From positions 3,750 to 67,749 of IMG/VR virus record IMGVR_UViG_3300032895_000002: DNA of 64,000 bases. The stretch is one strand, 5' to 3'. The notes below the pieces were generated by a model. That model was not told the DNA's origin. It worked only from the letters and a program-made list of their open reading frames with translations, and made no database searches. Positions within the stretch are counted from its first letter, which is position 1. Each line of letters opens with the position of its first letter. Shown here piece after piece: positions 62,471 through 62,992 of the stretch. Source of the stretch: a virus. The position numbers and the translations under genes are program-made.

Positions 62471-62499
62471 TTGCGTCCTAGGGCAAGATGCCCTATATC
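62471..62499 (+). promoter_or_regulatory. Sigma70-type promoter with operator A in the spacer
   Basis: TTGCGT-17nt(CCTAGGGCAAGATGCCC)-TATATC. Confidence 0.75.
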
Positions 62500-62503
62500 A
62501 TGA

Positions 62504-62992
62504 GGCGGAGGGAGACAAGCGATAGCGGCACTGGCCACGGGCAAGCGAAGCGAAAGCACTAGCTCCACAGGCGGCGCGCCAGCGAGGCGAAGCTCTCTCC
62601 ACCCCCGCAGGTTTTGACCTGCCCCCAGGGACGGCGCGAGCCGTCAAAGTAGGCGACGGGCTCTTGCCAGCCCTAAGAACCCGATCCTGCATCGCCTCGG
62701 CAAGGAGGTCGCCTATCGGCTCAGATGCAGGTTGGCCTGGGGGCCAGATCAAAGCCCGCAAGGGCTTAACGAATGGAGGCGGCGCAGACCGCCTCCCCTC
62801 CCGGGTGAGGGCATCCCCGGCGAATGCGGCGGGCGGTCCCGCCGACCTCCCGGGTGAGGGCAATCCCCGGCGGCGCCCGGGACGCTTGAGCCTGGGGCCG
62901 GATGAACAAGCTGGGCGAGCGAGAGCGGCCCGTAGCTGAAACGCTCTCGGATGGCGACGGCCATGGGCGGGAAGGAGACTTCCCGCCCTCAG
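62504..62992 (+). ncRNA. Candidate large structured RNA (unassigned)
   Basis: No credible ORF; dense stems, GNRA loops, several pseudoknots, an internal 26-nt duplication; promoter directly upstream. Confidence 0.6.

Follow-up and report, generated by a model that had tools for sequence, protein, structure and literature searches.

Within a 64-kilobase (kb) stretch of viral DNA, hereafter the window (bases 3750-67749 of the 67.7-kb IMG/VR virus record IMGVR_UViG_3300032895_000002, with an estimated completeness of 92%), we characterized a hairpin-rich stretch at 62505-63012. Our analysis indicates, with somewhat better than even confidence, that it represents a long 5' leader, dense in hairpins, for an inverted accessory operon in an uncultured temperate phage. 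The proposed unit would cover ~1.27 kb of the + strand, from a promoter at 62470-62498 through the leader and two small genes, orf63 and orf72, to a terminator at 63746-63775. It would form an accessory, 'moron'-like cassette lying in reverse in a variable site of the late operon, between orf78, which encodes a small membrane protein, and a gene for an 894-amino-acid (aa) protein. The initial annotation of this DNA had offered two readings of the stretch. One, a very elaborate leader for the two downstream open reading frames (ORFs), fits the anatomy, as no terminator precedes orf63 or orf72 and the sole one lies at 63746-63775. The other, an undescribed RNA class, is left without support because a class needs members and none were found for the well-folded domains. 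The features of the unit are as follows, with L010 denoting the one related locus that carries the same promoter and leader module.

62470-62498, + strand: sigma70-type promoter, CTTGCG at 62470-62475, 17 nucleotides (nt) of spacer and CTATAT at 62493-62498 (equivalent to TTGCGT-17-TATATC at 62471-62499)
62479-62495, no strand assigned: perfect palindrome of 17 base pairs (bp), TAGGGCA-N3-TGCCCTA (TAGGGCAAGATGCCCTA), filling the promoter spacer and overlapping the -10 box
62505-62602, + strand: 5' part of the leader ('domain I'), with the stem GGAGGGAG (62507-62514) / CTCTCTCC (62593-62600) containing one G.U pair; absent from L010
62603-62770, + strand: domain II, an interrupted long closing helix around a multi-branch core; absent from L010
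62771-62905, + strand: conserved leader module, tandemly duplicated as unit a (62775-62822) and unit b (62823-62872)
62906-63012, + strand: 3' part of the leader, a three-way junction
63013-63204, + strand: orf63, a small protein with one long predicted helix
63201-63419, + strand: orf72, a small alpha/beta protein with 4 homologues and a GC content at third codon positions (GC3) of 0.88
63746-63775, + strand: intrinsic terminator, CCCGCCGG-CCGCC-CCGGCGGG followed by TTTCTCTTT; the fold of 63740-63780 has -25.1 kcal/mol

The promoter motif named in the initial annotation, TTGCGT-17-TATATC, is indeed present at 62471-62499, and transcription would be expected to start at about 62504-62506. It fits 10 of the 12 positions of the alpha-proteobacterial consensus CTTGAC-N17-CTATAT, which is the sigma70 consensus reported for Sinorhizobium meliloti in PMC2873474; a scan for E. 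coli-type promoters called no site at 62470-62498. The palindrome has five occurrences in the window, where chance would give 0.01, and it sits in an identical promoter frame at 8646(-), 3160(-) and 23024(-), making four promoter copies and one extra palindrome. A promoter with the palindrome in its spacer was likewise found in L010 and in two further viral contigs (L121 and L122). Hexamers, 17-nt spacing and a recurring, overlapping palindrome together give this element, at the level of sequence, the appearance of an operator-bearing sigma70-type phage promoter, and the palindrome is presumed to be the operator of a dimeric regulator. Promoters of the same palindrome type stand at the head of the leftward small-gene arrays of this phage.

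Two further observations concern this promoter family. The palindrome copies at 3090-3106 and 3160-3176 lie 70 bp apart ahead of a leftward ORF (2735-3097), one in a promoter spacer and the other near the ORF start, and the small ORFs downstream of the pair have no PHROG match; small helix-turn-helix candidates lie near 2272-3100 and might include the protein that recognizes the palindrome. In L122, a 64.8-kb IMG/VR contig, the palindrome-in-spacer promoter lies on the - strand around 6122-6142 and has the consensus CTTGAC as its -35 box. This contig otherwise looks unrelated to the window phage, and operator and regulator may therefore be common to more than the lineage of the window phage.

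The stretch at 62505-63012 is non-coding, in agreement with the claim that it contains no credible ORF. The three codon phases are equal in GC content over ~62440-62900, compared with 0.46/0.68/0.86 in the flanking 894-aa gene. Every ORF inside the stretch has a GC content at second codon positions (GC2) at least as high as its GC3, the measure on which the gene map of the window was built and which lies at 0.83-0.89 in the real genes of the window. None of the three longest internal ORFs matched PHROG or Pfam. A tblastx comparison of 62500-63012 with 1.15 Mb of relative loci and the rest of the window gave matches scattered over all frames, the longest among the matches listed reaching at most ~41 bits. 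We dropped the idea of a pseudogene, as we read these matches as composition-driven and the GC phases are flat. A 14-codon ORF (62725-62769) lies inside domain II, with a perfect AAGGAGGT 16 nt upstream of its ATG, and this Shine-Dalgarno-like sequence is able to pair with CGACCTCC at 62843-62850; both ORF and pairing are compatible with chance.

At the distal end of the unit, the hairpin at 63746-63775 is the sole + strand hairpin with a T-run in 62400-63900 and probably marks the 3' end of the + strand unit, as judged from its sequence; a consensus terminator tool did not call it. The same scan found no + strand terminator between the promoter and orf63/orf72, so that the stretch can be read as a 5' leader belonging to a unit of ~1.27 kb: it is non-coding, lies downstream of a promoter and meets no terminator ahead of the real first gene. 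The two genes that follow are both real. Homologues of orf63 comprise 33 cluster representatives at E<=1e-3, and AlphaFold2 predicts a helix over residues 3-58 with a predicted local distance difference test score (pLDDT) of 93.9. Pfam returned only the sub-threshold PF23124 (E 0.0095) for orf63, and tblastn against phage records returned nothing. The closest homologues of orf63 and orf72 (P0020-P0026) are 73-99% identical, and in alignment A3 the dissimilar N-terminal extensions of the P0024 and P0026 gene calls hint at upstream DNA unrelated to the leader, as expected if the leader accreted in one lineage. The AlphaFold2 model of orf72 (pLDDT 87.3) found no match in the PDB at E<=0.001; it is weakly similar to Dmd of phage T4 (E 2.7).

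Around the distal end, a perfect 16-nt palindrome, GATCGGCCGGCCGATC, lies at 63431-63446, where the convergent orf72 and orf78 meet, and overlaps the 3' end of orf78. The spacer between terminase and orf78 (63662-63877), which contains the terminator, measures 216 nt here versus ~30 nt in L009 and L010. One low-depth contig of the wetland DNA run X1 has 19 other letters in place of 63755-63870, which indicates that this spacer varies in the community.

The leader itself is composed of clearly different parts. All stems named in the initial annotation are present at the positions given there. The core of the domain II closing helix pairs GCCCCCAGG (62621-62629) with CCTGGGGGC (62736-62744), and it encloses a GCGA-capped hairpin (62630-62645) and two crossing helices (62650-62657/62708-62715 and 62686-62693/62724-62731). 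Local hairpins at 62607-62622 and 62752-62767, the latter with a GCAA loop, are an alternative to the long helix. In the conserved module, units a and b each consist of a different GC hairpin followed by CCTCCCGGGTGAGGGCA(A)TCCCCGGCG, forming a direct repeat with 49-nt spacing, and a CCCGGG...CCTGGG hairpin comes after the two units. The 3' part combines a hairpin of CGAGAGCG (62920-62927) and CGCTCTCG (62942-62949), a small hairpin (62951-62964) and a 10-bp, GAGA-capped hairpin (62965-62988), and ~25 nt with a weak ribosome-binding region separate the last from the start of orf63. The pairing of CGAGAGCG with CGCTCTCG had been described as an H-type pseudoknot; in the minimum free energy (MFE) fold it is a plain hairpin stem. 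The two 8-bp helices said to cross within 62650-62731 do exist and do cross. When either of them is imposed on a nested fold, the energies are -80.6 and -87.6 kcal/mol, with each helix alone at ~-12.5, and a pseudoknot formed by the two is possible on this modelling.

We compared the folding energy of the stretch with that of dinucleotide-shuffled sequences on both strands. The whole stretch (62471-63015) gave an MFE z-score of -3.74 (+) and -4.26 (-), and 300 shuffles of each part resolved this signal along the leader as follows.

62505-62602: z -1.6 (+) and -1.0 (-), with shuffles as good in 21/300 (+) and 41/300 (-), which is chance level
62603-62770 (domain II): z -4.8 (+) and -5.1 (-), with 0/300 shuffles as good
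62771-62905: z -1.85 (+) and -1.23 (-), with shuffles as good in 17/300 (+) and 38/300 (-)
62906-63012: z -4.1 (+) and -3.0 (-), with 0/300 shuffles as good

The folding excess is confined to 62603-62770 and 62906-63012. The shuffled controls proposed in the initial annotation were therefore passed by the stretch as a whole and by these two parts, and were failed by 62505-62602, including the first of the named stems, which folds at chance level. In a GC-corrected sliding scan of the 64 kb (200-nt segments, about 1280 in all), the segment starting at 62601 ranked first on the - strand (z -4.88) and fourth on the + strand (z -2.97). Other outliers of the scan were 9451-9700 (-, z -4.5), at the 3' end of the primase/helicase gene and beyond, 3651-3900 (-, z -3.6) and 57851-58100 (+, z -3.6). 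Counts of perfect helices of at least 8 bp lead to a similar division: the whole stretch has 8 versus 4.25 +/- 2.1 in shuffles (P 0.066), which makes many of the stems picked by eye compatible with chance, and domain II has 3 versus 0.32 +/- 0.55 in 1000 shuffles, of which 2 reach 3 (P 0.002).

The loops of the hairpins distinguish the strands more sharply than their energies do. The GNRA-capped hairpins that had been read on the + strand are real and strand-specific: among the seven perfect tetraloop hairpins of the stretch, three have a GNRA loop on the + strand (62630-62645, 62752-62767 and 62965-62988) and none on the - strand, where neither GNRA nor UNCG loops occur (0/7). The window-wide share of GNRA loops among tetraloop hairpins is 10/152 (+) and 9/152 (-), a background of ~6%. 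Nowhere else in the window are tetraloop hairpins as dense as in this stretch, which has 7 where the average is 1.2 per 513 nt. Two helices, the first stem and CCCGGG/CCTGGG, contain G.U pairs that only the + strand can form, and in the second of them L010 has G-C instead. We thus favour the + strand on promoter direction, the sole terminator and the GNRA bias; the folding energies do not decide.

The genomic setting of the unit was reconstructed from the gene map of the window, which comprises the following.

1-15.9 kb, leftward: small-gene arrays with primase/helicase
16-32 kb, rightward: gene block including the integrase
23317-24447: integrase (PHROG 1, E 3.9e-34)
From the large terminase down to ~32.6 kb, leftward: structural (late) operon, with the terminase cut by the window end and its C-terminus at 63878
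59739-62423, - strand: 894-aa gene, capsid-like at its N-terminus and fibre-like at its C-terminus
63425-63661, - strand: orf78, the 78-aa small membrane protein of the late operon, directly after the terminase and antisense inside the + strand unit

The integrase points to a temperate phage. The hairpin-rich stretch sits within the late operon, between orf78 and the 894-aa gene, and lies opposite the head genes, as the initial annotation had placed it. Relatives keep orf78 beside the large terminase gene, with ~70-72% nucleotide identity in L009-L012 and L097-L100. Elsewhere in this operon, prohead protease and major capsid protein form one fused 797-aa ORF (57107-59500), ~25% identical to fused head proteins of lambdoid Shiga toxin-converting and related Escherichia phages.

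Eleven related loci have a visible junction upstream of the homologue of the 894-aa gene, and their comparison revealed a highly variable site. In five (L009, L098, L099, L100 and L101) the site is empty, with the membrane ORF adjacent or coupled to the large gene. Two (L096 and L097) have a co-directional 88-aa ORF in between, two (L011 and L012) a 116-aa ORF together with a collagen-like 284-aa ORF, and one (L089) an insert of ~3.3 kb. The last, L010 (on the same contig as L093 and L094), contains an inverted four-ORF cassette whose promoter and leader module are those of the window but whose cargo differs. With 5/11 loci empty and 6/11 carrying differing inserts, this comparison identifies an insertion hotspot where the small membrane ORF meets the capsid-like/fibre gene.

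L010 also gives a view of how the leader was assembled. It shares with the window the promoter region (62436-62511) and, at ~80% identity, ~130 nt of leader (62771-62905). The module is present there in single copy and begins right after the promoter; within ~45 nt of its end there is a good ribosome-binding site, and unrelated genes come next. Relative to L010, the window has ~270 nt (domains I and II) inserted between promoter and module and ~105 nt (the 3' domain) added behind, which makes its leader a mosaic. The promoter-proximal module thus appears to travel with the promoter and not with the cargo. Pairing changes between the two sequences are a G.U to G-C change in the CCCGGG/CCTGGG hairpin and a double change from U-A to C-G in the small stem CCUC/GAGG, of which an adjoining pair is broken; three pair changes in two sequences are, at this level of sampling, an anecdote and not covariation. 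The segment 62424-63424 is identical in contigs of four wetland DNA runs, which provided no natural variants.

Searches for the two folded domains (62603-62770 and 62906-63012) returned no relatives. There was no homologue in 50,697 phage records (INPHARED, blastn 'distant'), in the 11 related loci or in the four viral contigs with orf63 homologues (L117-L120), and elsewhere in the genome of the phage itself nothing but the promoter palindrome is repeated, with no further copies of the stretch. IMG/VR was searched by protein, with the 894-aa gene alone, orf72 alone and alignment A2, and yielded nothing for the folded domains. Pattern searches of IMG/VR returned only the contig of L010 for the leader core; L121, L122 and the contig of L010 for the promoter; and, for the repeat unit, 28 single matches without extended similarity, about as many as expected by chance. 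In Joint Genome Institute (JGI) metagenomes, alignment A2 gave 141 pattern matches and no relatives, and alignment A1 gave 15 loci, none with the domains; in GTDB genomes alignment A1 gave 4 loci. BLAST against 401 alphaproteobacterial genomes (the class of G001) produced only 25-50-nt matches with E of 1e-5 to 1e-3, which we read as chance, and a single-sequence covariance model of domain II (R1) matched only itself across 41 sources and 151 genomes of the order of G001. In all, only L010 shares ~130 nt of the leader, as a single sequence, and domain II and the 3' domain have no homologue.

The stretch is equally isolated from known RNA families, as far as the content of Rfam goes. No Rfam covariance model matched anywhere in the window at its gathering score, and at E<=10 the segment 62350-63250 gave only four chance-level matches, none usable. 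The best of these, to C4 antisense RNA on the - strand (62950-63003), is chance at 19 bits versus a gathering score of 45 (E 0.9), and the sole cis-regulatory match, to the L31-Firmicutes leader, falls well short at 14 bits versus 33.3 (E 5.1). The initial annotation had been unable to match the region to GOLLD, ROOL, transfer-messenger RNA (tmRNA), RNase P or self-splicing introns, and the Rfam scan agrees: models of ROOL, GOLLD, OLE, raiA, HEARO, RNase P, tmRNA and group I/II introns gave no match, and ARAGORN found no transfer RNA (tRNA) or tmRNA gene in the 64 kb. Several DNA elements were also discarded. A clustered regularly interspaced short palindromic repeats (CRISPR) array, a diversity-generating template repeat, a miniature inverted-repeat transposable element (MITE) and a repetitive extragenic palindromic (REP) element were rejected, as the genome contains neither additional copies nor a matching target and the 49-nt period has two copies; a cos/pac or attP site was rejected, as the entire insert is missing in 5/11 relatives and the integrase is 39 kb distant.

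Taken together, these data suggest an accessory cassette under the phage's own control. Its promoter belongs to a phage-specific family, with a dimeric phage regulator on the palindrome probably shutting it by occlusion, and as the same promoter type heads the leftward small-gene arrays, the cassette is probably expressed alongside them. The leader is a mosaic in which the module common with L010 was duplicated and two lineage-specific folded domains (62603-62770 and 62906-62998) were added. Its likeliest role is in cis, where GNRA-capped structure may protect or time the messenger RNA (mRNA), in decay or in the translation of orf63 and orf72, under convergent late transcription; such a role in mRNA stability or translation would be the most economical function. 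We infer the transcription start, the binding of the regulator and any function at the RNA level.

Several points weigh against the leader interpretation. Transcription, start site and 3' end are all predictions. Both strands fold about equally well, with domain II slightly better on the - strand, which leaves room for explanations at the level of DNA or of the - strand. The sibling promoters of the window have short leaders, and the regions upstream of the orf63 homologues show no similarity to the leader by blastn (0/4 loci): L117 and L119 resemble the window by eye over ~18 nt around the ribosome-binding site, and in L118 and L120 (2/4) the homologue is directly coupled to the preceding ORF. 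These genes accordingly need no 510-nt leader, and a long leader does not appear to be a feature of the orf63 gene family. The density of hairpins and GNRA loops, with a possible pseudoknot, would also go beyond the needs of known stabilising leaders and give room for a trans-acting RNA. In that case a stand-alone RNA, comprising the whole stretch or some of it and most notably domain II, would be processed from the leader and act in trans; for instance, it could be expressed early to sequester a host protein or RNA as a decoy or sponge, or could use the duplicated units as a scaffold for binding proteins. Domain II is predicted to form a compact, closed multi-branch structure far outside the shuffles, in which two of the long helices cross and one hairpin has a GNRA cap. 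Compared with the L010 leader it has been inserted, which is what one would expect of a self-contained module, and the promoter in front is of the same type as those leading the small-gene arrays. One pair of a mini-pseudoknot proposed for the repeat units is U-A in the window and C-G in L010, but the adjoining pair is broken in L010. We nevertheless regard a stand-alone RNA as unlikely: it would have no terminator of its own, belongs to no Rfam family, and shows no sign of selection beyond one genome, with no homologue in the searches and no variants among the four identical wetland runs. A more specific form of the idea, in which domain II (168 nt), the duplicated hairpin/CCUCCCGGG units and the 3' junction make up a new orphan trans-acting phage RNA, is in our estimate quite unlikely; driven by the operator-bearing promoter, possibly early, such an RNA might act as a decoy, its target being a host defence or RNA-binding protein and the two ORFs its co-cargo.

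The near-equal folding of the strands raises two further explanations. The stretch may have no function as RNA at all and may be filler that grew by recombination, duplication and palindrome accretion at the hotspot, or else a DNA-level element of protein-binding inverted repeats, its hairpins being by-products of DNA palindromes in GC-rich sequence. The high variability of the site among relatives, the mosaic leader with its 49-nt tandem duplication, the chance-level 5' part and whole-stretch helix count and the lack of conservation outside the window phage are all in keeping with this. A DNA palindrome would not, however, select for GNRA loops on the + strand only, domain II and the 3' domain lie far beyond the shuffles, the hairpin density is the maximum of the window, and other genomic copies are missing, unlike what a repeated palindromic element would leave; we hold this explanation to be similarly unlikely to that of a stand-alone RNA. 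Alternatively, the functional molecule may be the - strand RNA, as late transcripts running from terminase to the 894-aa gene cross the insert, and its structure might provide them with a processing site, stabilise the downstream cistron or insulate them from the opposing promoter. On the - strand, no segment of the window is a stronger outlier in the sliding scan than domain II, which also reaches its lowest z against shuffles there; three C.A mismatches of its closing helix on the + strand are G.U pairs when read on the - strand, which speaks against the + strand; and the late genes are adjacent or coupled in relatives, so that read-through is needed here. This explanation is very unlikely, given that the - strand has no GNRA or UNCG loops, the 3' domain folds better on the + strand, promoter and terminator both point along the + strand, and L010 has the same inverted layout without these domains.

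If the stretch is indeed a leader, the finding is instructive but ordinary: an accessory cassette set on the phage's own operator with an unusually long, stable leader, illustrating how leaders grow as a promoter-proximal module is duplicated and folded domains are inserted. It would be more important if domain II were a discrete RNA with a partner. To our knowledge, structured phage RNAs of unknown role are few, and we know of none from GC-rich soil or wetland phages of the alphaproteobacterial type. At present, with one genome, this is a lead rather than a discovery.

Comparison with known systems places the cassette more precisely. Like ROOL and GOLLD, the stretch is phage- or prophage-borne, several hundred nt long and rich in stems, with multi-stem junctions, possible pseudoknots and a role still unknown. 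According to PMC5737381, ROOL and GOLLD are often near tRNA genes and widely distributed. The stretch differs in having no covariance-model match even at E<=10, no tRNA gene in the 64 kb and no homologue that would make it widespread, and in leading an mRNA without a terminator of its own; its GC-rich, alphaproteobacterial-like host range also differs from the Firmicutes or rumen setting of ROOL and GOLLD.

The put RNAs of phage HK022 and the nut RNAs of lambda are leader elements close to the promoter that influence the polymerase transcribing them. The L010 module resembles them in its two to three stem-loops, which begin at most ~10 nt from the predicted start and follow the promoter, not the cargo, whereas in the window the module lies ~270 nt downstream of the start and the unit contains no terminators to override. 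In type III toxin-antitoxin systems (ToxI-like), tandem antitoxin RNA repeats are followed by a terminator and then by the gene of a ToxN/AbiQ-like endoribonuclease. Here, too, tandem repeats that can each be drawn as a small pseudoknot come after a promoter and upstream of ORFs, but there are two copies only, the 49-nt period includes a different hairpin each time, and no terminator precedes the ORFs. We rejected such a locus, given the two repeats, the lack of a terminator between and the absence of a ToxN/AbiQ-type match for the 63- and 72-aa products.

Phage 'morons' are additional gene units that sit between conserved genes and are equipped with a promoter and a terminator of their own. 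The cassette resembles one closely: it has its own promoter and terminator, it lies between late genes that are adjacent in 5/11 relatives, with differing inserts in 6/11, and its cargo varies. It differs in being inverted, so that its transcript would run antisense over the conserved orf78, in its structured leader of ~510 nt, which makes up ~40% of the unit, and in a promoter that bears the phage's own operator, by which the cassette may be early lytic and not lysogen-expressed. In its behaviour, then, the cassette is like a moron with an unusually elaborate leader, one that stands outside all Rfam families.

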